DNA of 64,000 nt from contig JAGVXV010000010.1 of NCBI GenBank assembly GCA_018303625.1, positions 13,411 through 77,410 of the forward strand. The letters are read 5' to 3'. The stretch comes from Candidatus Woesearchaeota archaeon. GTDB lineage: Archaea > Nanobdellota > Nanobdellia > Woesearchaeales > GW2011-AR4. Made by a program: the position numbers and the translations under genes. Of the stretch, positions 159 to 57,428 are shown one piece after another (the stretch's first letter is position 1; every line of letters begins with the position of its first letter). Below the pieces are notes generated by a model. That model did no database searches and was not told where the DNA came from. It was given only the letters and a program-made list of their open reading frames with translations.

Positions 159-779
159 TTATTTATTCTTAAGCCTATAATATGTTAAACGACCTATAAC
201 AAAACCTATTAGTGTTCCGCCAATATGCGCAAAAATATTAACATTAGTCTTATTGTTAGCAAATGCCATCCATAATAAAAAAAGAAGCAGCACTATGCCA
301 GTAATTCTTCTTCTTAATGGAATTTCTTTTAAAAAACAGAGCAAAAAAATTATTAATCCAATTAACGAGAATGCGATGCCAGAACTACCTAAAAAATATC
401 CTGCATTGCTCCCCATTTTTATGCTATACCAATAAGCAATCAAGGTTATCCAAGGTGTGATTAAAACTACACGTAACAAATAATATCTCGCCAATTCTTC
501 CCTCTTTATTTGTTGAAGCAATAAAAACAAGATTGTTAAACAAAGTAAAATAATGACTGTATTGGAAAAATAATGTTGAAAATCATAATTAATAAAATCT
601 TTAGTATATATTTGCCAAAATGAAAAATTATTCCGGTTTAAGGCTAATTGTTCTTTGTAATCTTGAAAAAATATATACAAGATCGACATTATTATTGGCA
701 AGATTAAAGTAAAACTAAATTCTTTGGAGTTAAATTTAAATGATTTTCTCATATTAACTAGAATTAACCATCCTATCAA
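159..779 (-). CDS. Rhomboid-family intramembrane serine protease (polytopic membrane protein)
   Basis: 206-aa multi-TM ORF. It has a 'GSSGIAFSLIG' (GxSG-like) motif and a downstream 'AHIGGTLIGF' (AHxxGxxxG) motif, typical of rhomboid catalytic Ser/His helices. The alternative start M10 (about 752) would remove the overlap with the ispG stop. Confidence 0.55.
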   Translation of the reverse strand: MIGWLILVNMRKSFKFNSKEFSFTLILPIIMSILYIFFQDYKEQLALNRNNFSFWQIYTKDFINYDFQHYFSNTVIILLCLTILFLLLQQIKREELARYYLLRVVLITPWITLIAYWYSIKMGSNAGYFLGSSGIAFSLIGLIIFLLCFLKEIPLRRRITGIVLLLFLLWMAFANNKTNVNIFAHIGGTLIGFVIGRLTYYRLKNK

Positions 780-1809
780 TCTCCTTCATCAGCGTCTCAA
801 CAATTTTCTCTTTCTCAACCTTTCCAATTATCTTTCCATCCTTGTACAATAAATTGGTGTTTCCAGCCCCGCCTACAATTCCCAAATCAACCTTTTTGCT
901 TTCTCCCGGGCCGTTGACAGCGCAGCCCATAACTGCAACATGAATGGGCTTCTTTATTTTTTCAGTTTTCTGCTCCAGCTCCTCAACCATTTTGATTACA
1001 TCAACATGAGTTCTTGCACATGTAGGGCATGAAGTAACTTCAACACCATCATTTCTTAAGCCCAGGCTTCTCAATATCAGTTTTGCAACCCTTACTTCCT
1101 CTTTGGGCTCCTCTGACAATGAAACACGAATTGTGTCGCCAATTCCCTCTGACAATAAAATTCCCATGCCCATAGAGCTTTTTACAGCCCCCGGAACTTT
1201 GCTTCCCGCTTCTGTAACACCCAAATGCAACGGATAATCTTTCTTTTGCGCAAAAATCCTGTAGGCCTGAACCATCCTCGGCACATCAGAAGCTTTCAAA
1301 GAAACAACAATGTCATAAAAATCCAAGTTTTCCAAAATTTTCACATGCCTTAAAGCGCTTTCTGCCATACCTTCCGCGCTGTAGCCGTATTTTTCAAACA
1401 AATCGCGCTCCAAAGAGCCGAGATTAACACCAATTCTCATCGGCAATCCGTATTCTTTTGCAGCATCAACAACCGCCTTAACCCTATCCTCTTTTCCAAT
1501 ATTTCCGGGATTAATTCTTAATTTATCAACATACTTTGCAGCTTCCAATGCAATCCTATAGTCAAAATGGATGTCTGCAATCAAAGGAAGGTTTATGTTT
1601 GCCTTAATTTCCTTCAGGGATTTTGCTGCCTCCATTGTAGGGGCTGAAACCCTTATTATGTCGCATCCAATTTCCTCAAGCTCAAGAATCTGCTTTACGG
1701 TTGCATTAATGTTAGTTGTATCAGTTGTGGTCATTGATTGAATAGCAATAGGGTTATTGCCCCCTATTTTTACATTCCCTATTTTAACTTCTCTTGATTT
1801 CCTTCTCAT
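754..1809 (-). CDS. ispG: 4-hydroxy-3-methylbut-2-enyl diphosphate synthase IspG/GcpE, bacterial type
   Basis: 351 aa, collinear with bacterial IspG over its full length: 'IAIQSMTTTDT', 'IADIHFDYRIAL', 'RINPGNIG', and C-terminal 'CPTCAR...GCAVNGPGE' [4Fe-4S] cysteines. Confidence 0.85.
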   Translation of the reverse strand: MRRKSREVKIGNVKIGGNNPIAIQSMTTTDTTNINATVKQILELEEIGCDIIRVSAPTMEAAKSLKEIKANINLPLIADIHFDYRIALEAAKYVDKLRINPGNIGKEDRVKAVVDAAKEYGLPMRIGVNLGSLERDLFEKYGYSAEGMAESALRHVKILENLDFYDIVVSLKASDVPRMVQAYRIFAQKKDYPLHLGVTEAGSKVPGAVKSSMGMGILLSEGIGDTIRVSLSEEPKEEVRVAKLILRSLGLRNDGVEVTSCPTCARTHVDVIKMVEELEQKTEKIKKPIHVAVMGCAVNGPGESKKVDLGIVGGAGNTNLLYKDGKIIGKVEKEKIVETLMKEIDRMVNSS

Positions 1810-28986: not shown

Positions 28987-29745
28987 ATGGCACTTTATCT
29001 AATCGGCATAGGGCTAAATGATGAGAAGGATATCAGCCTAAAAGGCCTGGAACTGATAAAGAAATCAGATTTTGTTTATCTGGAAGCTTACACTTCCAAG
29101 CCGAATGTTCCATTAAATTATCTGGAAAATCTCTACAATAAAAAGATAATTTTAGCTGACAGGAATCTGGTTGAGGTTGAAGCTGAAAAAACTATTTTAA
29201 AGGAAGCAAAATCAAAGAATGTTTCCTTTTTGGTTGCGGGGGATATTTTTGCCGCAACAACACACATTGACTTGTTCTTAAGGGCAAGAAAATCAGGAAT
29301 TGAAGTGAAAGTGGTGCATAACGCCTCAGTGCTTACCGCAGTTGGTGTTACCGGGCTGATGCTTTATAATTTTGGCAAAACGACAAGCATTCCATTGCAC
29401 AACGAGGATATAGAAACCCCTTATGATGTTTTGAAGCTGAACCAGAAAAACAGCATGCATACTTTGTTTATTCTTGACTTGAAGGAAAATGAGAATAGCA
29501 GCTTGACTGTAAATGATGCTATAAGGTATTTGCTGAAAATTGAAATAAAAAGAGGGGAAAGGGTTTTTAGCAATGAGGCCATGTGTGTTGGCTGCGCAAA
29601 GCTTGGCAGCTTAGATCAGATAATAAAAGCAGGAAAAGCCTCGGAGCTGCTGAAGCATAATTTTAAGAATGGCCTGCATTGCCTAATTGTTCCTGCAAAA
29701 AAGCTGCATTTCATTGAGGAAGAGGCTTTGGGGCTTTATAGGTAG
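28987..29745 (+). CDS. dph5: Diphthine synthase (Dph5)
   Basis: 'MALYLIGIGLNDEKDISLKGLE', 'FLVAGDIFAATTH' and 'GLHCLIVP', typical of the tetrapyrrole-methylase-fold diphthine synthase. Confidence 0.85.
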   Translation: MALYLIGIGLNDEKDISLKGLELIKKSDFVYLEAYTSKPNVPLNYLENLYNKKIILADRNLVEVEAEKTILKEAKSKNVSFLVAGDIFAATTHIDLFLRARKSGIEVKVVHNASVLTAVGVTGLMLYNFGKTTSIPLHNEDIETPYDVLKLNQKNSMHTLFILDLKENENSSLTVNDAIRYLLKIEIKRGERVFSNEAMCVGCAKLGSLDQIIKAGKASELLKHNFKNGLHCLIVPAKKLHFIEEEALGLYR

Positions 29746-37158: not shown

Positions 37159-38214
37159 ATGGTAGAGGTAGGAAGAATAGTCAGAGATTTGGAAACTGTG
37201 AGAGAGCATTTACTTAGAACTGGAGCTAGGCCAGAAGTTGTTGACGCATTTAACAGAACTTTTCTACTTGACACTTTAAACACAGATGTCCTATCCAGAT
37301 TTGCATTTTATGGGCTACTGAGACGAACTATAGAAAATTATATTGAAGGGAATTTAATAATAGAACGCCAGGATAGAAGAAAACTGAATGGTGGCGATAG
37401 AGTCAATCTTAGGGGTAAAGCCAAAGAAGATAGAAGAGCCGAAAGAATAGAGGTTACAAGTGACATGATAGATGTAGCTATGTTTGATTTAGGCCGTTTT
37501 AAATTTTATAATGACGAATTTGGGGAATTAGTTGGAGATTTGCTTCTAGCAGTTGTAGGCGGAATGATTAGCAAGAACCTAAGGCCGTATGACGCCACCA
37601 CAGCACCAGTGGATTATGAATCTCTTTTGAGAAACATAGGCAGTGGGGTTGCAAGTAGGGAAAAAGGTGATGAATATAGGGCAATGATAGTCGGGACAAG
37701 ACAGCATAAGACAATAATTAACCGTATTCTTAAAAATGTCAGAAAGGAAGCCATAGAAGAGGCTTATAAACAAGTTAAAGGAAATCCAGAATTGATTAAT
37801 TTGTTTAGAGGTGATTCTTACGCAGAAAAAGAAAGTAACCTAGAGAAGTTTTACAGAGCACAAAAGACTATGCCAATAGTGTTAAGGGTAGGGTATGCCA
37901 TACTAAAAGACATTGAAAAAGAAGTTGAAAGAACTGAGCGCGCCAGAGACCCTGAGAACCTAGCTACCCGCTTGATAGTGGCAAGCACGGATACACAAGA
38001 AGCTGTTAAGATGAGCGGTGATTTGGGAAAAGTTTATTCTTATCAAGATTTAAAGAATGGAAAAATTGGGGGTAAAACGACAAGCCACATGCCTCCAAAT
38101 TTAGTTGAGATGGTTCAAAGGTATGGTGGTGAAGTTTTTCACCGTAGAGTTCTTGATGAAATTCGAGCCTCTCATCCTGACGCTTACAGATTGTTAACAA
38201 GAAGAACTGGTTGA
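37159..38214 (+). CDS. hypothetical protein (351 aa), Arg-rich, atypical codon usage
   Basis: A long, clean ORF adjacent to tRNA-Arg. Its codons are strongly AT3-biased (aga, tta, gta, aca) in contrast to core genes. No enzymatic motif is recognised. It ends with a Walker-A-like 'GKIGGKTTS' near the C-terminus. Confidence 0.4.
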   Translation: MVEVGRIVRDLETVREHLLRTGARPEVVDAFNRTFLLDTLNTDVLSRFAFYGLLRRTIENYIEGNLIIERQDRRKLNGGDRVNLRGKAKEDRRAERIEVTSDMIDVAMFDLGRFKFYNDEFGELVGDLLLAVVGGMISKNLRPYDATTAPVDYESLLRNIGSGVASREKGDEYRAMIVGTRQHKTIINRILKNVRKEAIEEAYKQVKGNPELINLFRGDSYAEKESNLEKFYRAQKTMPIVLRVGYAILKDIEKEVERTERARDPENLATRLIVASTDTQEAVKMSGDLGKVYSYQDLKNGKIGGKTTSHMPPNLVEMVQRYGGEVFHRRVLDEIRASHPDAYRLLTRRTG

Positions 38215-38236: not shown

Positions 38237-39787
38237 TCAATAATCCACCAGGCTGATCTGCCCTTTCCTTTTTCCAGATGGAATTTCTTTTATTTCCTCT
38301 CCTACCTGCTTCTTCACATTCAAAGCGACTTTTTCTCCCAGAATCTGCACTAACTTTAAAAAATCTGCCTTCTTAACATCCCCGATATCCTTGATCTTGT
38401 TGTTGTACAATTTCCTTGCCCTTACTCTTCCAATCTGCTCAAGCCTCAATAAGGGCAGCAATTCCTCTCTGACGCCATACTTCATTCTCAGCCTCAGCTT
38501 CGCAATTTCCCTGATCAGGCTTTGGTAATGCAAAATTCTTGATATTTCCTCAGAGGAGTAAAGCAGCCAGTCGGCATTGTCCAGCTTGACCCTTAATTCG
38601 CCAGGCCTTAGGTTGTACTGCTCGAGCAGAAACTCCTCGTCTTTCTCATCGGTCCAGTCGATAAACATCAATGCTGTTTTAATGCTGTTCAAAAAGTCAT
38701 CATATTCGGGCTCGTACATGGAAGGCTCATGCTCAAGCAGAAAACTTTCGTGCTTTATCAATTCCTCCTGGATTTTCTCATTTTCTTTTGCGCCAACCCT
38801 GAGCAAAGGCCTCATTTCAAGTGTATGGCATGCCATCTGCAAAAGGGAAAATTCATTTATTTTTTTGTCAGAGGCATTCCTCAGGCAGCTTATGATGAAA
38901 AAAGCAGTCAAGGGGTCAATGTAAAGCTCTGCAACTCTTTTGCCCATTACTGTCGCCCTTATCTCCTCATTTTCAAATTTATCAGCATCCCTGAATTCAT
39001 TTTTCTTCCTGGCTATAAATTCCCATTCTTCCAGCAAATCCAGCATTTTTGATATTATCATTTCAAGCTTTCCAAAATCCCTGAACTGGTAGGCCCAGAA
39101 TGTCCTCTCAAAAAAATCCATTATCTGGCTTTTGTTTCTTGTGAAATCAGCCGCAATCAGGCTTAATAGGTATGTCCTTAACACAGGCTCGACAGCAAGC
39201 TTCGAGTAAATATCCTCAGGCTCGCCCAAAATGTACATCTCGTAAATCTTGTTTTTTTCACCTTCGCTGCCTGCAATTGCAATTGCCTCTCCTGTTTTGT
39301 CAAATTTAGGCCTGCCAGCCCTTCCTGACTGCTGCAGATATTCCAGAACAGGTATCCATGCCAATCCTCTTGGGCTGTATCTCCTCAAATCCTTAATAAT
39401 GACCCTGAATGCCGGAAGATCAACTCCATACGCCAATGTTGGGGTTGCGCAGATAATCTTGATTAAGCCGTTCCTGAAGTTATTTTCAATCAGCTCCCTT
39501 TGCTTTGAAACCAGGCCGGCATGGTGAAAAGCAATTCCTTTTTTTATGCAGTAAGCCAGCCTTTCGCACTGCTTTGTAGGCCTAGAAAGGGCGTTAAGTA
39601 TGCCGTCAGAAATTCTCTCTAAATCCGCATTGCCCACCTTTATGCTCTTGGCTATTTCCTCAGCGGCTTTTTCAGCGCTCCTCTTGGTATTTGCAAAAAC
39701 TATAGCCTGCTTTCCCAGATTAATCGTGTCCAAAGCCAGGTTTGTAACAGAATTATCGCTATGATTGGGTATTTTTTTATTGCCCAT
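38237..39787 (-). CDS. Hel308/Ski2-like DNA helicase, C-terminal portion only (RecA2, WH, ratchet and HLH domains); N-terminal RecA1 domain absent
   Basis: It begins at the RecA2 domain ('GKQAIVFANTKRSAEKAA', 'AFHHAGL', 'TPTLAYGVDLPA', 'QQSGRAGR' motif VI). The Hel308-type WH/ratchet/HLH C-terminus continues to 'KRKGQISLVDY'. A TAG stop lies 5 codons upstream of the ATG. No Walker A/DEAH is present. Confidence 0.7.
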   Translation of the reverse strand: MGNKKIPNHSDNSVTNLALDTINLGKQAIVFANTKRSAEKAAEEIAKSIKVGNADLERISDGILNALSRPTKQCERLAYCIKKGIAFHHAGLVSKQRELIENNFRNGLIKIICATPTLAYGVDLPAFRVIIKDLRRYSPRGLAWIPVLEYLQQSGRAGRPKFDKTGEAIAIAGSEGEKNKIYEMYILGEPEDIYSKLAVEPVLRTYLLSLIAADFTRNKSQIMDFFERTFWAYQFRDFGKLEMIISKMLDLLEEWEFIARKKNEFRDADKFENEEIRATVMGKRVAELYIDPLTAFFIISCLRNASDKKINEFSLLQMACHTLEMRPLLRVGAKENEKIQEELIKHESFLLEHEPSMYEPEYDDFLNSIKTALMFIDWTDEKDEEFLLEQYNLRPGELRVKLDNADWLLYSSEEISRILHYQSLIREIAKLRLRMKYGVREELLPLLRLEQIGRVRARKLYNNKIKDIGDVKKADFLKLVQILGEKVALNVKKQVGEEIKEIPSGKRKGQISLVDY

Positions 39788-39896: not shown

Positions 39897-41237
39897 TTAA
39901 GAAGTTGGGTCTGATACTCTACCTATAAACAGAATTGTATTATTTTCACGTTCTTGAATTATGAAGATAAAAGGATGGTCTGCACGAAAAATTGGTGTTG
40001 GTGGTGGGATCGATATAATTCCAATAACAACTGCTGTTGCAGCTGCTGCTTCTGTGCCTTCCTCATTCACATCAACAAATGCCTGATGGATAACATCGCT
40101 AATAACAAGGTCTTTTTTTCCATCAATTCCAGAAAAATCCGCTTCTAGTGGATCAAATGATGATAAGATTCCCATTTCTTTAAGATTTTTAGAGAGAAAA
40201 TATTTACTATCAAAAGTAAACCGAGGTATAAAAACATCAACGTTTTGTTCTTTCAACTTGGTAACCCATTCAGTAAATTTAACTGTGGAAAGAGAGCTTT
40301 CAACTTTTTCTAAGTCATCATTTTTTGGAAGTAGGATTATCATCGATAAATTGTTTCCTTCATACAGCAATTCAAGAATCTGCGATTCATCTGTTTCTGC
40401 ATAATTGAATCTTGACTCTGTATACCTCATAATTGGCACTATTACAGTTTTTTCATTATTCACCTTAAATTCTTCATCCTTGGTTTCTTCTTTATCAAAT
40501 TGTACTAGCCAGTTTGCTTTAAAGTAAATTGCATTTGTAAGTACCAATCTTGTCGCGGCATCAAGAACGCCTACTGGAATTAAATCCTTAATCTTATCAT
40601 TAGTTTTATCTTCTACCCATTTATTTATTGTCTGCCGAGCTTCTTCAGTCGCTTTTATGAAATCAACAAGATTAGCGCTTGCATCATAATATTTTTGCAA
40701 TACATTAACATATTCATCTAAAATTCCAAAATCTTTTTGTACCCAAAATGCATTTGCAGTGCTAAGATTATATTTACTGTCCTTGCTATTTATTTTACTG
40801 TTAAGTTCTACATATGACAATCTAAGCAAGCCATAATCCTCTGGAAAATGCAATGTTCTTGCAATCTCATTTGCAGTCTCTCCACGTGCTCCTTCATATG
40901 TCATTGCAAGTGCTGCAGTAATGCTCCATGGAGAGAAAAAGATATTCCCTTCTTCCTCACTTAATTTTGAATAAAGATCAAAAGCAAATTGATTATTAGA
41001 GTCTGAAATGCCACTAAAATTTACTGTAATTGCTTTGTTATCTTTCTTTGCGGGTAATTCATGCTCTATAGATTGATTTTTAGCAGCGGATTCACGTTTC
41101 TCTAGAGGAGCAATTTCTTCATCTTTTTCTGGCAAATTATTAAATATCGCCAAATTAAGAACTACTAGAATACTAACTATAACGATAACTATCCATAAAA
41201 TAGTTAAAATCGTTTTCTTATCCATTTCCTCCAACAT
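39897..41237 (-). CDS. Serpin (serine protease inhibitor), membrane-anchored/secreted
   Basis: An N-terminal TM is followed by a serpin fold. It has the hinge 'NEEGTEAAAATAVVIGIISIPPP', the canonical EEGTEAAAAT inhibitory hinge, and the C-terminal 'FRADHPFIFIIQE...ILFIGRV' serpin signature. Codon usage is AT3-rich. Confidence 0.85.
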   Translation of the reverse strand: MLEEMDKKTILTILWIVIVIVSILVVLNLAIFNNLPEKDEEIAPLEKRESAAKNQSIEHELPAKKDNKAITVNFSGISDSNNQFAFDLYSKLSEEEGNIFFSPWSITAALAMTYEGARGETANEIARTLHFPEDYGLLRLSYVELNSKINSKDSKYNLSTANAFWVQKDFGILDEYVNVLQKYYDASANLVDFIKATEEARQTINKWVEDKTNDKIKDLIPVGVLDAATRLVLTNAIYFKANWLVQFDKEETKDEEFKVNNEKTVIVPIMRYTESRFNYAETDESQILELLYEGNNLSMIILLPKNDDLEKVESSLSTVKFTEWVTKLKEQNVDVFIPRFTFDSKYFLSKNLKEMGILSSFDPLEADFSGIDGKKDLVISDVIHQAFVDVNEEGTEAAAATAVVIGIISIPPPTPIFRADHPFIFIIQERENNTILFIGRVSDPTS

Positions 41238-41343: not shown

Positions 41344-43236
41344 TTAATTAACATCAACAACAAACTCGCGGCTTATTTCCTCAACGCCGTCGCTTACAGT
41401 AACCTTGATTTCCTTTTTGCCTTTTGACGCAAATGTCCTTTTGTGTATCGCAGTTGCATTGTGCTTGTCAAAAAGCCCGAAATCCCAGAGATAAGACAAA
41501 GCATCATTATCAAAATCCCTTGCCGCAACAAACAATGTTACCGGTTCGTTCACTTTAGCTGACAAATCCGTGCTGGAATTGACTATTTCAGGCGCTATAT
41601 TTTTATTGAAAACAGTAATGTTAAGCTCCTGCTCAGCACTATCCTGTCCATCGCTTGCAACAAACCTGACTTTTACGCTTTCTTTTTCTTTGCCTTTGAC
41701 AAAGGAAAAATCCGGCTTGAAAGTAAAAATGCTGCCTTCCAATTCAGCATTTTCCGGCAGATTTTCAGCAGAGAATCCTATTATATCATTGTCAGGATCT
41801 GTTGCCATTAATTCCATTCTAAGAGTTTTGTTTTCAGTTATTTCTGCATTTTTTAATGGCTCAAAGGCTGGAGCCCTGTTGACATTCTCAACACTGACAG
41901 TAACAAATTCCGAAGCAGTGTAAAACCCGTCAGTGCCCGTGACTTTTACGATATAAATGCCTGCATCATCAAAATTTGTCTTATAAGTATTTTTTGCCAT
42001 CCATCCTGAATATGCAAATGAAACCCTGTCGTTGTCAGGGTCGTTGTAGCGCGGCTCTATTTTAACTTCCTCATTTTCATCGATAGTGATTGGTGCAATA
42101 GGCTCCAAGGTAAAAGGCCTGTTTGCGTCCCTTACAGTTATTTTTACGTCTTTTTCCGCTTCATTTCCATTGCTTTCCGCCATAAACTTGATATTTACGC
42201 TTTTGCTTAGCAAATGAAACTTGTCGGCGATATAATCAACAAGATTTTCCTTTTTTACAAAATTGAAATCAGGCTTCCATCTGAAAGTATTTCCATCCAG
42301 TACAGCCCCATCCGGCATGTTCTGCGCAGAAAAGATTATGTCATCATTATCAGGGTCCTGAACATTCAGCTCTATGGCTGCTTCTTCATTTTCATTTATT
42401 GCAATATCCTTTAAGTCAACAAAAAAAGGAGGCCTGTCATTGTTGCTTACAGTCACTTTGACCTGCTTGCTTCCTGAAAATCCTTTTCCATCTGCTTTTA
42501 TCGTTACCTTATAGGTGCCTGCATCATCATAGCTCGTCTGCCATTTGTTGTTCTGCCCGATTGGCTCTGATATAGTGTAAATTAGGCCGTATTTTTTAAA
42601 ATCAGGAAGGTTTAAGCTTGCAATTTCTGTTTCCCGGACTGCAATATCCTGTATAGAATCCAGAACATTTTCCATGCTGACATCATTTACCTCTACAATC
42701 CATTCGTTGCTTACACTATGGAGTTTATCTGAGACAACAATCTTGACATTATGCGTTCCGGCATCTTCGTAATCAGTTAAGTAATTTATAGTCTTGTCAT
42801 TGCTCACCAAAACATCATCAAGAAACCATTCATAGGCTAGAGTGTCTTTATTCAGGTCAGAGGCTGAAACATCAAAGCTTATGCTTTCTCCCTCATTAAT
42901 TGCCACTTTGTTTTCTTTCGGGGCAAAGCTTTCAATTGCCGGCTTTTCCTCCTTTTTACTGACAACCAGCAAAACCTCCTGGGAACTGCTCAATTCTCCA
43001 TCGCTTACAGTAATTGTGACTTTATATTCGCCTGCATCACCATAAGTTGTCTGCCACTCGCCATTTTCATTTAAAGGCTCGCTGTATGAATAAACAAGAT
43101 TCTGCGCATCAGGGTCTGTGGCTTTCGGCTGCAGGCTTACCAGTCCGGTTTCATTATAGGCAAAGGTTGTTATGCCGGAAGAGATATTAGCAACTAATAA
43201 TAAAACTAGCAATAGCAAAATTATTTTTTCCCCCAT
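41344..43236 (-). CDS. Secreted protein with about 6 PKD-like Ig-fold repeats
   Basis: A signal peptide is followed by repeats of roughly 90 aa, each with 'Y..DAG.Y.V.V.V.D' PKD signatures (for example 'TTYGDAGEYKVTITVSDGELSS', 'TDYEDAGTHNVKIVVSDKLHS'). Confidence 0.6.
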   Translation of the reverse strand: MGEKIILLLLVLLLVANISSGITTFAYNETGLVSLQPKATDPDAQNLVYSYSEPLNENGEWQTTYGDAGEYKVTITVSDGELSSSQEVLLVVSKKEEKPAIESFAPKENKVAINEGESISFDVSASDLNKDTLAYEWFLDDVLVSNDKTINYLTDYEDAGTHNVKIVVSDKLHSVSNEWIVEVNDVSMENVLDSIQDIAVRETEIASLNLPDFKKYGLIYTISEPIGQNNKWQTSYDDAGTYKVTIKADGKGFSGSKQVKVTVSNNDRPPFFVDLKDIAINENEEAAIELNVQDPDNDDIIFSAQNMPDGAVLDGNTFRWKPDFNFVKKENLVDYIADKFHLLSKSVNIKFMAESNGNEAEKDVKITVRDANRPFTLEPIAPITIDENEEVKIEPRYNDPDNDRVSFAYSGWMAKNTYKTNFDDAGIYIVKVTGTDGFYTASEFVTVSVENVNRAPAFEPLKNAEITENKTLRMELMATDPDNDIIGFSAENLPENAELEGSIFTFKPDFSFVKGKEKESVKVRFVASDGQDSAEQELNITVFNKNIAPEIVNSSTDLSAKVNEPVTLFVAARDFDNDALSYLWDFGLFDKHNATAIHKRTFASKGKKEIKVTVSDGVEEISREFVVDVN

Positions 43237-43264: not shown

Positions 43265-44278
43265 TTATTCCTGCACTATGTCTATTATCTGCGGAGGCCT
43301 GTTTACATTCTCTACTATGACGGCAACTTCCTGGCTTGCTTCATCAGTGCCGTCTGATGCCGTTACTTTTACAGTATACGTTCCTGAATCATCATAGGTT
43401 GTCTCCCAAACGCCGTCATTTCCTACAGGATCAGATATTGTAAATGCAATTTCATCTCCGTCCAAATCTGCCGCTTTAGGCCCTATGGTTACTGTTTCTG
43501 TCTCTTTAACTTTTATAGCTGGGATTTCCTCCAGTACCGGCTTCCTGTTTACATTATTTACAGTGACAGACCATAAGTTTTCTGTCGATAGCTTGCCATC
43601 TGAAACAGTGACTTTTACTGTGTGGCTTCCGGCATCATCATAAGTGATTTCATATTTGAAGTAATCGCTGCCTGAAACCTCACTGCCGTCCAGTTTCCAT
43701 TCATAGCTTATTTTATCCTTGTTTAAATCAACGGCTTTAACGTTAAATTCAATTGCTTTTGTTTCACTTGTGATTGCGGTCTTTTCATGAGGCATAAAGC
43801 TCTCGATTACAGGCGCTTCTTCCTTTTTATTTACAATTATCAAAACTTCTTTTGAGCTTGTCAGTTCGCCGTCTGAAACAGTCACAGTAACGGTATATTC
43901 GCCAGCATCGCCGTAAGTTGTCTTCCATTCGCCTTTTTCGTTTAACGGGCTGCTGAATGCAAACTCTAATTCATCCTTATCAGGGTCCTGGGCTTTAGGA
44001 GTTAAGCTTACAATGTCTGTTTCCTGCACTATAATAACAGTCGCTTCCCCTACTTCTTCCCTGACTTCCTTCACTTCCTCTTTTTCAGCTTCCTTTTCTA
44101 CAGGAGCCTCTTCTTTTATTAGTTCTCCTATGGTTATGTTTTCCTCAGGAATCTTGACTACCTCCCCAACAGGAGCCGGCGGCGCATATAGTGTATTGTA
44201 GACGTCGCAGGCTGACAAGAAAACAGCGAATATAACAAGAGTTGCAATGAGCGCTTTTAATTTCATAATACCCCTCAT
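43265..44278 (-). CDS. Secreted/lipobox-anchored protein with 3 PKD-like repeats (paralog of the upstream gene)
   Basis: A signal peptide ends 'FLSAC' (lipobox-like). The repeats 'TTYGDAGEYTVTVTVSDGELTS', 'ITYDDAGSHTVKVTVSDGKLST' and 'TTYDDSGTYTVKVTASDGTDEA' are closely related to the 41344-43236 repeats. Confidence 0.6.
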   Translation of the reverse strand: MRGIMKLKALIATLVIFAVFLSACDVYNTLYAPPAPVGEVVKIPEENITIGELIKEEAPVEKEAEKEEVKEVREEVGEATVIIVQETDIVSLTPKAQDPDKDELEFAFSSPLNEKGEWKTTYGDAGEYTVTVTVSDGELTSSKEVLIIVNKKEEAPVIESFMPHEKTAITSETKAIEFNVKAVDLNKDKISYEWKLDGSEVSGSDYFKYEITYDDAGSHTVKVTVSDGKLSTENLWSVTVNNVNRKPVLEEIPAIKVKETETVTIGPKAADLDGDEIAFTISDPVGNDGVWETTYDDSGTYTVKVTASDGTDEASQEVAVIVENVNRPPQIIDIVQE

Positions 44279-51548: not shown

Positions 51549-52091
51549 ATGATATTTATTTTAATTGTAAAGGCTTTCTATTTCATGCTTCCGGCATATT
51601 TCGCCAACATGGCCCCCGTTATTGTAAAAAGGCTGTTCAAAAACCTGGCAATTGCTATAGATTCCGGCAGAAGATTTGGCAATAAGCCAATCCTTGGGAG
51701 CAACAAGACGTGGCGCGGCCTGGTTTTCGGGATTATTTTTGCGATTGTCATCTCATTTTTGCAATTTTTATTTTATAATAATAATATTTTTGCGGAAATA
51801 TCTTTGGTGGATTATTCCAATTGGCTGTTATTTGGGTTTTTAATGGGCTTCGGTGCTTTGCTTGGAGACATGACAAAAAGTTTTTTTAAAAGAAGGCTGG
51901 GTTATGCTCCGGGAAAGCCTTTTATCCCGTTTGACCAGCTTGACTTTGTCGTAGGAGCCCTGCTTTTTACTTACCCCTTGGTTAAACTGCCGATAGGGCT
52001 TGTAATCACAACAATTTTGCTGAGTTTTTTTTTAGATATTGCTGTAAACCATATATCCTATTACCTCAAAATAAGGAACGAGAAGTGGTAA
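51549..52091 (+). CDS. carS: CDP-archaeol synthase (CarS)
   Basis: 180 aa with about 5 TM helices. 'GNKPILGSNKTWRGLVFG' and the C-terminal 'PFDQLDFVVGALL' are CarS signatures. Confidence 0.8.
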   Translation: MIFILIVKAFYFMLPAYFANMAPVIVKRLFKNLAIAIDSGRRFGNKPILGSNKTWRGLVFGIIFAIVISFLQFLFYNNNIFAEISLVDYSNWLLFGFLMGFGALLGDMTKSFFKRRLGYAPGKPFIPFDQLDFVVGALLFTYPLVKLPIGLVITTILLSFFLDIAVNHISYYLKIRNEKW

Positions 52092-52559: not shown

Positions 52560-53021
52560 TTATCTGCACATGTTTTTTTCCATTTCCTTTATTTGCTTGA
52601 CTCTTCTCCTGTGCCTTTCCTCTTTGCTGAAATTTGTTTCAAGCCAGATTTTTGTTATTTTTTTTGCCTCATTCTCCTTCAGGATTCTTGCGCCGAGGCA
52701 AAGCAGGTTGCTATCATTGTGCTCGCGGCTTTTTAATGCAGTATATTCATTAAAGCAGTTTGTTGCCCTTATGCCCCTTACCTTGTTTGCCACAATTGCC
52801 TCTCCCAAGCCTGTGCCGCAAACCAAAATGCCCTTGCCTTTTGCCTTTGCCACCTTTTTTGCGACTTTAATAGCTGTTTTAGGGTAATCATGATATTTCT
52901 TGTCATCATCAACGCCCAAATCCTCTGCCCTATAGCCTGATTTGCCAAGAAATGCTTTTATTTTTTCCTTCAGCCTAAAGCCGGCATGGTCGCTGCCTAT
53001 GAATATTACCTCTTTTTTCAT
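52560..53021 (-). CDS. rpiB: Ribose-5-phosphate isomerase B (RpiB/LacAB family)
   Basis: 'VIFIGSDHAGFRLKEKI' and 'GILVCGTGLGEAIVANKVRGIRA' are typical of RpiB. It has a 20-aa basic C-terminal tail. Confidence 0.85.
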   Translation of the reverse strand: MKKEVIFIGSDHAGFRLKEKIKAFLGKSGYRAEDLGVDDDKKYHDYPKTAIKVAKKVAKAKGKGILVCGTGLGEAIVANKVRGIRATNCFNEYTALKSREHNDSNLLCLGARILKENEAKKITKIWLETNFSKEERHRRRVKQIKEMEKNMCR

Positions 53022-53094
53022 GATTTATTCTGCAGAATAGGAGCTTTTTAAACTTTTCTTAAAAATCAAATTATTTTAAAAACAGGACTATAGT

Positions 53095-53355
53095 TTACCA
53101 GCTTCTTATGTAGACAGAATGGCCCCATTGTATCAGCAAATCAACGCCCAATTTCTCAACCAGCAGGGGCACATCGCAGCCTCCCCAGCAGCTTCCAAGC
53201 CAGATAACAACCTTCGCACCGGTATTCTTTTCCAGATATTCCTGTATTTCATTTGCCCTCGGCTTCAGACCGTCAGGCAGCTGTATGCATACCAGTTTTG
53301 CATTGCTTTTCCTGATTTCCTCAGCTGCTTTGTTTAGTTCTAAATCGTAAGTCAT
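53095..53355 (-). pseudogene. dph2: Dph2 (2-(3-amino-3-carboxypropyl)histidine synthase) N-terminal fragment
   Basis: The 86-aa ORF 'LVCIQLPDGLKPRANEIQEYLE...VVIWLGSCWGGCDVPLLVEKLGVDLLIQWGHSVY' matches only domain 1 of Dph2. It ends in a stop about 70 nt upstream of rpiB. Full-length Dph2 is about 330 aa. Confidence 0.6.
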
Positions 53356-53380: not shown

Positions 53381-54010
53381 TTATACTTTTCTAGGTTTAG
53401 GAGGCTCCACTGGTTGATTAGGAAAATTCTCAGCATCTTCAAGAAATGTTTCAAAAAAATATGTTTCTAAACTTGAAAATAATTCTAAATATCCATCTTG
53501 GGTAACTTTTTTGGTAAGTTTTCTTCTTGTTTCATCCTCCAATTGACCAAGGTCCCCAGTATTTTCAATTACATGCGGATTTGAAGTATATATGCTATCC
53601 CTAAACCACGTAGCAAAAATATCAATAAATCTTTTGTATAAGTCTTGATTTACTTCATTAATCCGTCCATCACCAGTAAAAACGCTAAAAATATGTCTTC
53701 CATATACTTTTCCAAATACAAACTCAACCTCATCCCGAGCTTTTTTTTCATTTTCTTTGATTATTTCTTCGACTCTTGAAAAATAACTTTTTGATACTTG
53801 TACTTCTCTGTTTTGTGAATTATACCACGGTTTTATTAGAAGTATATTATCCACCATTACTAATCCAGGAATCGGAAACAAATTTTTATCAACACTTCCT
53901 TTATAAAGTGCATCTGCTATTTCTTCAAGAACTCCGCCAATAAGAGTTTTAGACCTATAAAAAATATCTCCATTTGCAAATATTCCTTGATTTCCTACAA
54001 CATCTCCCAT
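53381..54010 (-). CDS. hypothetical protein (209 aa)
   Basis: A clean ORF with AT3-rich codon usage (aga, tta, cca) and no recognisable motif. It is the last gene of an apparent 3-gene minus-strand unit. Confidence 0.4.
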   Translation of the reverse strand: MGDVVGNQGIFANGDIFYRSKTLIGGVLEEIADALYKGSVDKNLFPIPGLVMVDNILLIKPWYNSQNREVQVSKSYFSRVEEIIKENEKKARDEVEFVFGKVYGRHIFSVFTGDGRINEVNQDLYKRFIDIFATWFRDSIYTSNPHVIENTGDLGQLEDETRRKLTKKVTQDGYLELFSSLETYFFETFLEDAENFPNQPVEPPKPRKV

Positions 54011-54039
54011 TTTTAAAATTCAATAATTTAAGAATCTCA

Positions 54040-54177
54040 CATAAACAATTCATCCAGCTCAAATTCGCTCAGGTCTTTTTTATTGATAAGTTTAGCAAAA
54101 TCCTTCTCTCTCATCTTTTTCCTTTCTTCCCTCATGCTTTCGATTTCAGTCATGTCTTCATCAAAAAACTCTTCCAT
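54040..54177 (-). CDS. tiny acidic ORF (about 45 aa)
   Basis: 'MEEFFDEDMTEIESMREERKKMREKDFAKLINKKDLSEFELDELFM'. It starts 3 nt after the stop of the 109-aa ORF. It is not in the supplied ORF track and its coordinates are approximate. Confidence 0.25.
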
Positions 54178-54180
54178 TTT

Positions 54181-54510
54181 TTAACCCCTCGGTATTTGAG
54201 TTCTGTATGTTTCTGGTATCATTAAATCATGGAATAAAAATCCGTCTGTTGGACCATCACCTGGAATGATGTTGGCATAAAACCTGTTACCCCTTAAACC
54301 ACTCTCCCAATATTCATATGTAGATTCTGGATGCTCAGATTTTTGTGGTCTTCTTCCGTTAAATAAACCTCTGACTTGTGGGTCTTTAATTAATTCGACA
54401 GTTATAAGTTCTGCATTTTGTGGTCTTAAATAATGTACAAGCATTCTCACTACCCGATTACCATCAGATTCTCTACTCACTACTGTAACTCCTTCCATTT
54501 TCAAAACCAT
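54181..54510 (-). CDS. hypothetical protein (109 aa)
   Basis: '...RRPQKSEHPESTYEYWESGLRGNRFYANIIPGDGPTDGFLFHDLMIPETYRTQIPRG', with AT3-rich codons. It is the first gene of the 3-gene unit. Confidence 0.4.
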   Translation of the reverse strand: MVLKMEGVTVVSRESDGNRVVRMLVHYLRPQNAELITVELIKDPQVRGLFNGRRPQKSEHPESTYEYWESGLRGNRFYANIIPGDGPTDGFLFHDLMIPETYRTQIPRG

Positions 54511-54973: not shown

Positions 54974-56227
54974 ATGCTGAAATTCTTGAAAAATATTTTT
55001 ATGCAGAAGGAAATCAAAAATGAGGAAATTAACCTGAACGAGCTTGAGGGCTGGATTGAGTCCAATAAAAAGATTATTTTAAACGACCTCAATAAAAAAA
55101 CCGATGAGATAATGTCCAGGATAAGCAATGAGGTAAGAAAGTGCAATGAAAACCTCAGGGCATTGGAAAATGCTGAATTGGCAAACCCTAAAATACCGCT
55201 GAGGGCAAAACAGGCAATGGAAGGCAACAGGGAAACCTATATAAAAAGGATAAATCTTTTTTTGGCGGGGATTGACTTAAAAGAGGCTGATTACGGCAAA
55301 CTCCTTGATTTCTGCACTAATTTTGAAATTCAGGCAGGTGAAGTGGCAAAAAGCACTTTCAAGAGCTATCAGGTTTTGCAGCATTTCTTTGCCAATGAAT
55401 CCTCCGATATAGCCAAGAATATAAAATATATTGATGATAATGTAAAAGAAATCAGACATCTGATAGTAAGCTCTAAGGTAAGCTCCATTGACGGCATAAA
55501 AAATGAAATTCTTGGTTTAAGGATGAGGATAAACCGGAAAAATAAGCTGGAGGAGGGCTTAAGCGGCAAAGAAAAGCTTATTGAAGAATTAAAGGAATTG
55601 AAAGCTGGCTTGGCAGAAGAGATAAATGATTTCAGCAAATCCGAAGAATATACTGGCTTTAAAATTTTAAAGGATAATAAAGCCTCGATAGAAAAGGAGA
55701 TTGGCGCGCATACTGCTTCCGTTATTCATTCTTTCTCAGTTTTGGAAAAAGCGCTGAAAAAATTTTCCAGGATATCATTGGAGGATGAAAAATTGATTAA
55801 CAATTATCTGGTTTCTCCGGTAAAAACTCTAGCCGAGGACAAGGGATTGAGGATAAAAAAGGTATTGGATAATTTAAAGGGCAATCTGCTCAGGAATAAA
55901 TTGGAGCTGGAAGAAAAGAAAGTGCAAAAATCCCTGAGCGAGATAGAAAAATTAAGCGTTGATTTTTTCATGTATTTCCTCGCAGCTTACAATGAACTTG
56001 AAGAGAGATTAAAAAACACGTGCAATGAGCTGGAAAATAATATGGCAGAGAAAAAATATATTGAATTGAACAATAGGATGGGCTTATTGAACCTCCAAAT
56101 GGAGAGGTTAGAAGAGGACATTAAGGGCTTAAAGCAAGAATCAGGGAAAATAGATATTCAGGCATTGAAAACTAGCCTGCAGGAAAAGGTGAACAGCGCA
56201 TTAAATAAATGCATCATCATTTCTTAA
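54974..56227 (+). CDS. coiled-coil protein, hypothetical
   Basis: 417 aa, K/E/L-rich with heptad periodicity throughout. No catalytic motif. Confidence 0.4.
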   Translation: MLKFLKNIFMQKEIKNEEINLNELEGWIESNKKIILNDLNKKTDEIMSRISNEVRKCNENLRALENAELANPKIPLRAKQAMEGNRETYIKRINLFLAGIDLKEADYGKLLDFCTNFEIQAGEVAKSTFKSYQVLQHFFANESSDIAKNIKYIDDNVKEIRHLIVSSKVSSIDGIKNEILGLRMRINRKNKLEEGLSGKEKLIEELKELKAGLAEEINDFSKSEEYTGFKILKDNKASIEKEIGAHTASVIHSFSVLEKALKKFSRISLEDEKLINNYLVSPVKTLAEDKGLRIKKVLDNLKGNLLRNKLELEEKKVQKSLSEIEKLSVDFFMYFLAAYNELEERLKNTCNELENNMAEKKYIELNNRMGLLNLQMERLEEDIKGLKQESGKIDIQALKTSLQEKVNSALNKCIIIS

Positions 56228-57428
56228 ATCTCCCGTGGGCTTCTTCCAAAGCAACTATCGCGGGCAGTTTGCCGTCTTTTTCTATAAATTCAAGTGAAGC
56301 CCCTCCTCCGGTGCTCACATGGGTCATCTTTTCAGCAAAGCCGAATTTTTCAACTGCCGCAGCGCTGTCCCCCCCGCCGATTATCGTGGCAGCGTACAAA
56401 GAGGAGATGAATTCTGCAATCTTTCTTGTACCGCTGGAAAATTTCTTGAATTCAAAAACCCCCAGGGGTCCTGCCCAAAGCACTGTTTTTGCATGGCTCA
56501 GCTTTTCCTTATAGGCTTCTATGGTATTGCTGCCGATGTCCATCACCATCCAGTCATTTGGAATTTTATTGATGCTGACTTCCTTGCTGTCGGCATTTTC
56601 CTCAAACCTGTCCGCAACAATAACATCGACAGGCAATAAAATCTTCTTATTGCCAATGAACTCTTTTGCGTGTTGCAAACTTTCCTCATCAAATTTCGAT
56701 TTCCTGATGTCAACTCCTTTTGCCTTCAGAAAAGTGTTTGCCAGAACCCCCCCTATAATCAGGCTGTCGACTTTTGAGAGCAAAGCCCTCATAACACCTA
56801 TCTTGTCTGCTTTTGCGCCGCCTATTATAGCTACAAAAGGCTTTTCGGGATTAAGCAGTTTGCTTAATTCATTTATCTCCTTTTCCAGCAAAAAGCCCGC
56901 GCATGAAGGCAGGAAATTCGTAATTGCGTGGACTGAAGCGTGCTTTCTATGGGAGGCTCCAAAAGCATCATTGACATAAACATCCGCAAGGCTTGCGAGC
57001 TTTTGCGCAAAAGCCTCATTGTTTTTTTCCTCTTCGTCATGAAACCTCAGATTTTCCAGTAAGATGATGTCAGCGTCTGGCAGCCTGATATCAACACAAT
57101 CGCCGGCAAAAACAACATCAATGCCCAGTATCCCGCTTAGGTTTTCCGCAACAGGATTCAATGAAAGCTCCCTCTTCACATCCTCAACGCTTTTTCCCTT
57201 TTCATACTCGTCTTTCGGCCTGCCTAAGTGGCTCATCAGGATTATTTTGCAGTTTTTCTCAAGCAAATAGTTTATTGTAGGGACAGTTGCCTCTAACCTT
57301 GTATCATCTGCAACTATTCCGTTCTTCAAAGGAACATTATAGTCTACTCTAACAAGAACTCTTTTGTTTTCCAGGGCCATATCCTTCAAAGTCAAAAACT
57401 TCATAGTGCTATAGAGGGAGTATTGCAT
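56217..57428 (-). CDS. pgk: Phosphoglycerate kinase
   Basis: 'VLVRVDYNVP', 'ILMSHLGRP', 'GGGASLE' and 'FVAIIGGAKADKIGV' are PGK signatures. 403 aa. Confidence 0.95.
   Translation of the reverse strand: MQYSLYSTMKFLTLKDMALENKRVLVRVDYNVPLKNGIVADDTRLEATVPTINYLLEKNCKIILMSHLGRPKDEYEKGKSVEDVKRELSLNPVAENLSGILGIDVVFAGDCVDIRLPDADIILLENLRFHDEEEKNNEAFAQKLASLADVYVNDAFGASHRKHASVHAITNFLPSCAGFLLEKEINELSKLLNPEKPFVAIIGGAKADKIGVMRALLSKVDSLIIGGVLANTFLKAKGVDIRKSKFDEESLQHAKEFIGNKKILLPVDVIVADRFEENADSKEVSINKIPNDWMVMDIGSNTIEAYKEKLSHAKTVLWAGPLGVFEFKKFSSGTRKIAEFISSLYAATIIGGGDSAAAVEKFGFAEKMTHVSTGGGASLEFIEKDGKLPAIVALEEAHGRFKK

Follow-up and report, generated by a model that had tools for sequence, protein, structure and literature searches.

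The window analysed in this work was a continuous stretch of 64,000 nt from a Candidatus Woesearchaeota contig, and a short ORF was found on its minus strand at 53095-53355. The ORF started with ATG, encoded 86 aa and ended in QWGHSVYIRSW, in which Trp86 was directly followed by the TAA stop codon (53095-53097). By direct reading, an A/T-rich spacer of 73 nt (53022-53094, minus strand) lay between this stop codon and the start of rpiB at 53021 (52560-53021, minus strand; PF02502, 170 bits), which agreed with the about 70 nt of non-coding DNA reported in the initial annotation. A CarS-like CDP-archaeol synthase gene was located at 51549-52091 on the plus strand (PF01864 annotation, locus L001). 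Upstream of the 86-aa ORF, three small ORFs were arranged on the minus strand at 53381-54010 (209 aa), 54037-54177 (46 aa) and 54181-54510 (109 aa), and all three were identical across independent assemblies (L001-L003). No NCBIfam match was obtained for the 209- and 109-aa ORFs, the 209-aa ORF was also without a significant Pfam match, and the 46-aa ORF had no family on record. A TATA-like 'GTATAAAAATT' overlapped the stop codon of the 209-aa ORF about 25-35 nt before the start of the 86-aa ORF. The gene of diphthine synthase, dph5, was present at 28987-29745 on the plus strand and was intact, as had been annotated: the TIGR00522 equivalog model gave 269 bits against a cut-off of 114 over profile positions 2-251 of 258, and PF00590 was also assigned. 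Dph5 is the next enzyme of the diphthamide pathway and needs the product of Dph2.

Dph2, the 2-(3-amino-3-carboxypropyl)histidine synthase, is in canonical archaea one chain of about 330 aa with three similar alpha/beta domains, each of which gives one Cys to a [4Fe-4S] cluster. This cluster cleaves SAM, and the 3-amino-3-carboxypropyl group is transferred to a histidine of elongation factor 2. The 86-aa ORF was a member of the Dph1/Dph2 superfamily, over the first 60-83 or so positions only, since both PF01866 (Diphthamide_syn; E=6e-12, 46 bits, cut-off 33.2, positions 1-58 of 302) and TIGR00322 (Dph1/Dph2 domain; 74.7 bits, cut-off 35, positions 1-83 of 320) exceeded their cut-offs. The archaeal Dph2 equivalog TIGR03682 was matched with 56.7 bits over positions 1-64 of 308, below its cut-off of 202.8. 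The ORF was aligned with residues 7-84 of Methanobrevibacter smithii Dph2 (6q2d, E=2e-13) and also with the equivalent stretch of the Methanoperedens and Pyrococcus horikoshii enzymes. These profile and PDB matches, covering about 84 N-terminal positions, bore out the initial annotation of the product as domain 1 only, about one quarter of the normal length. The 'WGGCD' of the ORF was aligned on 'GACD' of P. horikoshii Dph2, the motif with the first [4Fe-4S] ligand, which is Cys59 of that enzyme; in the ORF this ligand was Cys60, and the 'GH' motif was found at positions 78-79. With 86 aa the product was no canonical full-length single-chain Dph2 (about 310-340 aa), and of the three cluster cysteines it carried Cys 1 (C60) only. 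Its length, its end shortly after GH(S/N) and its invariant Cys 1 placed it among a group of split N-terminal ORFs of about 85-95 aa, which are referred to as NTD below.

Domains 2-3 of Dph2 left no trace in the six frames of the 64-kb window, including the 73-nt spacer, when HMMs built from 22 full-length Dph2 proteins and, separately, from C-terminal-only proteins were applied, and both HMMs matched the NTD ORF alone. A TBLASTN search of the window with a P. horikoshii Dph2 sequence gave no match, was too insensitive and missed the NTD as well. Whether the 209-aa upstream ORF might conceal the C-terminal half was also examined, and this was rejected, for the ORF had no Cys, no family match and no HMM match. 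The gene of aEF2 was not in the window, in which there was no ORF of about 730 aa; the window ORFs of 583-957 aa encoded LeuRS, DNA ligase, H+-PPase, a protein with repeat domains and one of 868 aa that matched no family significantly.

Several other features of the window and its contig were recorded. A bacterial-type MEP/DOXP isoprenoid cluster extended from window positions 754-1809 (minus strand), where GcpE/IspG was encoded (PF04551, 500 bits), across the window start into the same contig (L226 11000-18600), where DXR, an IspD-IspF fusion, GHMP kinase, LytB/IspH and polyprenyl synthase were found just outside the window; the mevalonate route is the norm in archaea, and the organism is in other respects a DPANN archaeon. 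At 38237-39787 (minus strand) a 516-aa archaeal helicase had a Helicase_C domain at residues 75-160 and also 'archaeal helicase domain 4', and was without the DEAD/ResIII N-terminal half; its gene may, like that of the 'large helicase-related protein' of Nanoarchaeota, be a further case of splitting. Upstream of it, a full-length serpin gene was found at 39897-41237 (minus strand; PF00079, 412 bits) in this small archaeal genome, adjoining genes of large surface proteins with PKD/Big_9 repeats (41344-43236 and 43265-44278). A 351-aa ORF at 37159-38214 (plus strand) had a partial match to GGDEF (residues 100-146, 35 bits), a domain unusual for archaea. PGK was called as two pieces (268 and 137 aa) compared with 395 aa in assembly ERZ28564412 (L229 10196-11387, window about 56217-57428), which indicated a frameshift or a strain variant.

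The NTD was a member of a large family of short proteins. A protein search retrieved 1374 homologues, the best 120 of which were nearly all 87-88 aa long and 73-91% identical, and annotated homologues were named 'diphthamide synthesis protein [Woesearchaeota/Nanoarchaeota]' by NCBI. In a library clustered at 50% identity, dozens of distinct representatives of about 85-95 aa, down to about 33% identity, were ranked ahead of the first full-length Dph2. Relatives were detected in at least 585 GTDB species genomes (one genome per species scanned), and in 80 of 80 inspected GTDB loci the ORF was N-terminal-only, with 85-153 codons from stop to stop and matches to HMM positions 1-84 only. Residues G29, C60, D61, G78 and H79 were invariant among 29 diverse homologues. 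An AlphaFold2 model of the NTD (pLDDT 79, pTM 0.70) had three helices and four strands in the alpha/beta fold of Dph2 domain 1, and the top 15 Foldseek matches in PDB were all Dph2, with query-normalised TM of 0.69-0.75 and rmsd mostly 2.2-3.3 A over 74-80 columns. Lower confidence was observed in the model at the cluster loop and the C-terminus, as would be expected for parts that need a partner. Dozens of the GTDB genomes that carried the Woesearchaeota-type split NTD and its synteny were titled 'uncultured Methanosarcinales archaeon (binchicken...)' (loci L014, L015, L017 and L018 among them), and these titles look taxonomically mislabelled.

The flanks of NTD loci were scanned for C-terminal-only proteins (CTD), and a seed was obtained in this way from locus L071, in which a 231-aa ORF 2.1 kb downstream of the NTD matched HMM positions 87-312 and contained 'LGC' and 'ACPR'. 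The search with this CTD gave 1912 proteins, and the best 120 of the 1912 were nearly all 225-271 aa. One 346-aa ORF among them (P0528) was examined as a re-fused protein and was rejected as over-called, its N-terminal extension not being Dph2-like. The second and third cluster Cys were invariant in 119 of 119 CTDs, and GDGxFHP and KPGQ were likewise kept. Several CTDs were called 'diphthamide synthesis protein' (Woesearchaeota/Nanoarchaeota) in NCBI, and one is now also named '2-(3-amino-3-carboxypropyl)histidine synthase subunit'. Almost all matches of a profile made from C-terminal regions cut out of full-length Dph2 were full-length proteins of 326-331 aa; the CTDs of the split lineage are too diverged. 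The CTD-only HMM gave 89 bits for full-length Woesearchaeota proteins, compared with 390-445 bits for its own source CTD-only ORFs. An NTD gene adjoined every one of the best 120 of 1912 CTDs whose contigs were examined.

Different arrangements of the paired halves were found. In L092 (GCA_016185625.1) and four Logan assemblies the NTD abutted the CTD in frame (TGG TAA ATG), the former ending in KKEGW and the latter beginning with MDVLFLDAPY. The halves were 2 nt apart in L097, were separated by a UDG gene in L099 and by a 260-aa gene in L101, and overlapped by 1 nt (TAATG) in a different frame in the marine loci L102-105. The junctions of L092 (9990-10010) and L102 (9995-10005) both look like translational coupling, and the in-frame junction of L092 could permit occasional read-through to a fused protein. 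The CTD motif W[VI]NTACPR[IV]GxDD, written as a DNA pattern, was also used to scan metagenomes, and the sample so obtained was unranked by similarity to any one protein. All 80 loci of this sample were CTD-only ORFs. An NTD was located upstream on the same strand in 52 of them, the distance being -4 to +16 nt in 38 and 40-1129 nt in 14. For a further 9 of the 80, the upstream flank was 600 nt or longer and contained no NTD. In the paired loci inspected, the NTD ended a few residues past GH(S/N) with Trp as the last or second-to-last residue, and the CTD starts among the sequences read followed 'M..(L/V/F)(F/H)(L/I/V)(E/D)'. As the cut position was the same in all loci examined, a single ancestral fission is suggested, after which both genes would have drifted apart.

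The position of the window NTD was examined by neighbour joining of 138 sequences, with full-length N-termini as the root (about 85 columns, without support values). In this tree the split NTDs were all placed together, apart from the N-termini of full-length Dph2, and the window NTD formed one clade with 79 unpaired GTDB NTDs, apart from the paired NTDs. Independently of this, ten CTDs without NTD in the locus, namely the nine with at least 600 nt of flank and L108 with about 190 nt of upstream flank, formed one clade in a neighbour-joining tree from a short alignment without support values. These unpaired CTDs were absent from the best-120 list of the L071 search because they were only 41-49% identical to the CTDs in it; they came from metagenomes including groundwater (Hainich 'Hain' contigs), and both Cys were intact. 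In the simplest reading, which is drawn from mirror phylogeny only, the unpaired NTDs and the unpaired CTDs would be the two halves from the same organism group; the sister groups of the two clades differed between the two trees. Neither a contig nor a MAG was obtained in which an NTD and a CTD of the two unpaired clades occurred together. When the unpaired-CTD loci were compared by TBLASTX with the window and with the unpaired-NTD loci, the matches were of paralog level only (about 40%) and showed no overlap. P0488 was examined as the window organism's own locus and was rejected, being from a different organism with paired halves.

The gene order of the window clade was also compared with that of the paired lineages. 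The order Rpr2 ... NTD, rpiB, a 165-aa ORF and, convergent to them, CarS was kept in the closest 25-30 species genomes, and rpiB directly downstream of the window NTD occupied the slot of the C-terminal half in paired lineages. CarS and a CDP-alcohol phosphatidyltransferase gene (CDP-OH_P_transf) adjoined the NTD and CTD pairs in L092, L097, L101 and L102. Since these genes also flank pairs, it is apparently the CTD that has moved elsewhere, the NTD remaining beside its former neighbours.

Taken together, the window ORF is very probably the N-terminal subunit of a split Dph2 that works with a separately encoded C-terminal subunit. In the proposed course of events, dph2 would have been cut once, just past GH(S/N), in a large Woesearchaeota/Nanoarchaeota lineage, giving a domain-1 gene of about 87 aa with Cys 1 and a gene of domains 2-3 of about 225-255 aa with Cys 2 and Cys 3. 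The two polypeptides are predicted to join non-covalently as a Dph2-like protomer, which would act as an ordinary Dph2 and supply the substrate for the intact Dph5 of the window. In the window clade the two genes would have drifted apart, and the partner gene of the window organism is expected to lie outside the source contig. In this sense the functional dph2 elsewhere in the genome that the initial annotation had envisaged was partly upheld: the relatives do have a separate gene, but for domains 2-3 and not for a full-length Dph2.

An alternative is that the window clade lost the C-terminal half, the 86-aa protein took another role, for example binding EF2 or another Fe-S partner, and Dph5 persists otherwise. 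A CTD was absent from about 82 kb around the gene (positions 540-82,603 of a source contig of 86,448 nt), and there was no second PF01866 gene in the 10 kb past each window end; of the 80 species genomes inspected, 79 likewise had no CTD at a distance of 10 kb or less from the NTD. The clade's own cluster motif 'SCWGGCD', in place of the usual 'SCFGACD', and the new conserved neighbourhood with rpiB would also suit such a role. Against it, what is kept invariant is precisely the catalytic set of Dph2 (cluster Cys and GH motif), the intact Dph5 requires the Dph2 product, the unpaired CTDs with both Cys intact are monophyletic and occur in metagenomes including Hainich groundwater, and the halves Nst222 and Nst440 are already dispersed in Nst1. 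A new role without the C-terminal half was thus considered unlikely. In a milder variant, the dispersed halves may be regulated separately, the small subunit setting the amount of active Dph2.

It was also considered that the window ORF duplicates domain 1 beside a normal dph2 of about 330 aa elsewhere in the genome. Such a combination, which the initial annotation had set as its refutation, did not show up in the stretch of the source contig examined. Full-length Dph2 of 326-331 aa does occur in some Woesearchaeota/Nanoarchaeota MAGs, such as P0353 in GCA_018658265.1. This P0353, which was found on many contigs, was examined as the Dph2 of the same organism and was rejected, as it came from marine MAGs. 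The monophyly of the split NTDs against full-length N-termini argues against an extra copy, as does the equally large CTD-only family which has the same cut point and goes with the split NTDs. Additionally, the NCBI accession numbers of the full-length and split proteins looked up were far apart, and no pair fell within the range of one genome. A paralog beside an ordinary Dph2 was accordingly judged quite improbable.

The initial annotation had taken the ORF for a remnant and had raised the loss of diphthamide synthesis as one outcome. It is true that just one quarter of the gene is left and nothing Dph2-like comes after it. However, the ORF was intact in all 80 inspected species genomes, its catalytic residues were invariant, the position of the stop codon after Trp was conserved, and Dph5 was intact. 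Between the window and its nearest relatives pS was 0.72-0.92, which is saturated, while pN was 0.11-0.19, and the median dN/dS of 405 pairs with measurable dS was 0.18, indicating purifying selection. Family-wide conservation, invariant catalytic residues and this selection contradicted both the remnant and the loss of the pathway, and a decaying pseudogene is very hard to maintain. A deletion or frameshift in the window contig, in favour of which nothing was found, is scarcely conceivable, because about 50 contigs, spread over 81 index blocks (ENA, JGI, NCBI and Logan) and coming from independent assemblies, carried the identical 86-aa protein with the same neighbours; among the sources were ENA MEGAHIT assemblies, JGI 3300002529, the 'ANAN16' metagenome assemblies in ENA, Logan, and the NCBI entry MBS3102252.1, 'diphthamide synthesis protein [Candidatus Woesearchaeota archaeon]'.

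The split Dph2 favoured here is already known, as reported for Woesearchaeota (split Dph1/2, arCOG04112; Narrowe et al. 2018, Genome Biol Evol, PMC6143161), for Parvarchaeota, Pacearchaeota, Woesearchaeota and Altiarchaeota (Dombrowski et al. 2019, PMC6349945), and for Nanoarchaeote Nst1, with genes 222 and 440 as the parts of its split DPH2 (Podar et al. 2013, PMC3655853). The window ORF is a case of this known feature that was earlier read as gene decay. As described in the relevant passages, the DPANN split Dph1/2 corresponds to the window case, with N- and C-terminal parts of Dph2 in two genes, and the halves of Nst1 are non-adjacent, as is proposed for the window clade. Neither the split point nor the sizes nor the gene arrangement are stated in those passages. 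Our work added the sizes of 87 and about 250 aa, the cut just after GH(S/N) and the occurrence in at least 585 species. It also added a preserved series of arrangements from abutting through interrupted to dispersed, in which the window clade would be a monophyletic group with dispersed halves. In a Woesearchaeota-type genome, a dph2 of one quarter of the normal length should thus be taken neither for pathway decay nor for a sign that the genome is incomplete, and the same caution for marker-gene sets is raised in the passages on split genes of Narrowe et al. 2018 (PMC6143161). The series of abutting, overlapping, interrupted and dispersed halves offers a clean natural case for the fission tolerance of a three-domain Fe-S enzyme.

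Compared with the canonical Dph2 homodimer (P. horikoshii 3LZD, M. smithii 6Q2D and Ca. Methanoperedens 6BXM), the NTD resembles domain 1 in sequence and in predicted fold and has Cys 1 and GH in common with it, and the CTD family shares Cys 2, Cys 3, GDGxFHP and KPGQ, whereas the canonical enzyme is one chain of about 330 aa and the split form consists of two polypeptides. The eukaryotic Dph1-Dph2 heterodimer is composed of two full-length paralogs, both of the PF01866 family. There the same step is likewise carried out by two PF01866 gene products, while in the split archaeal form one protomer is cut between domain 1 and domains 2-3. The split genes of Nanoarchaeum equitans and other DPANN archaea with reduced genomes (reverse gyrase, AlaRS, RNA polymerase B and large helicase) are also cases of one enzyme from two dispersed genes with the cut at a domain boundary; differently from these, the Dph2 split is common to hundreds of species and its adjacent intermediates are preserved.
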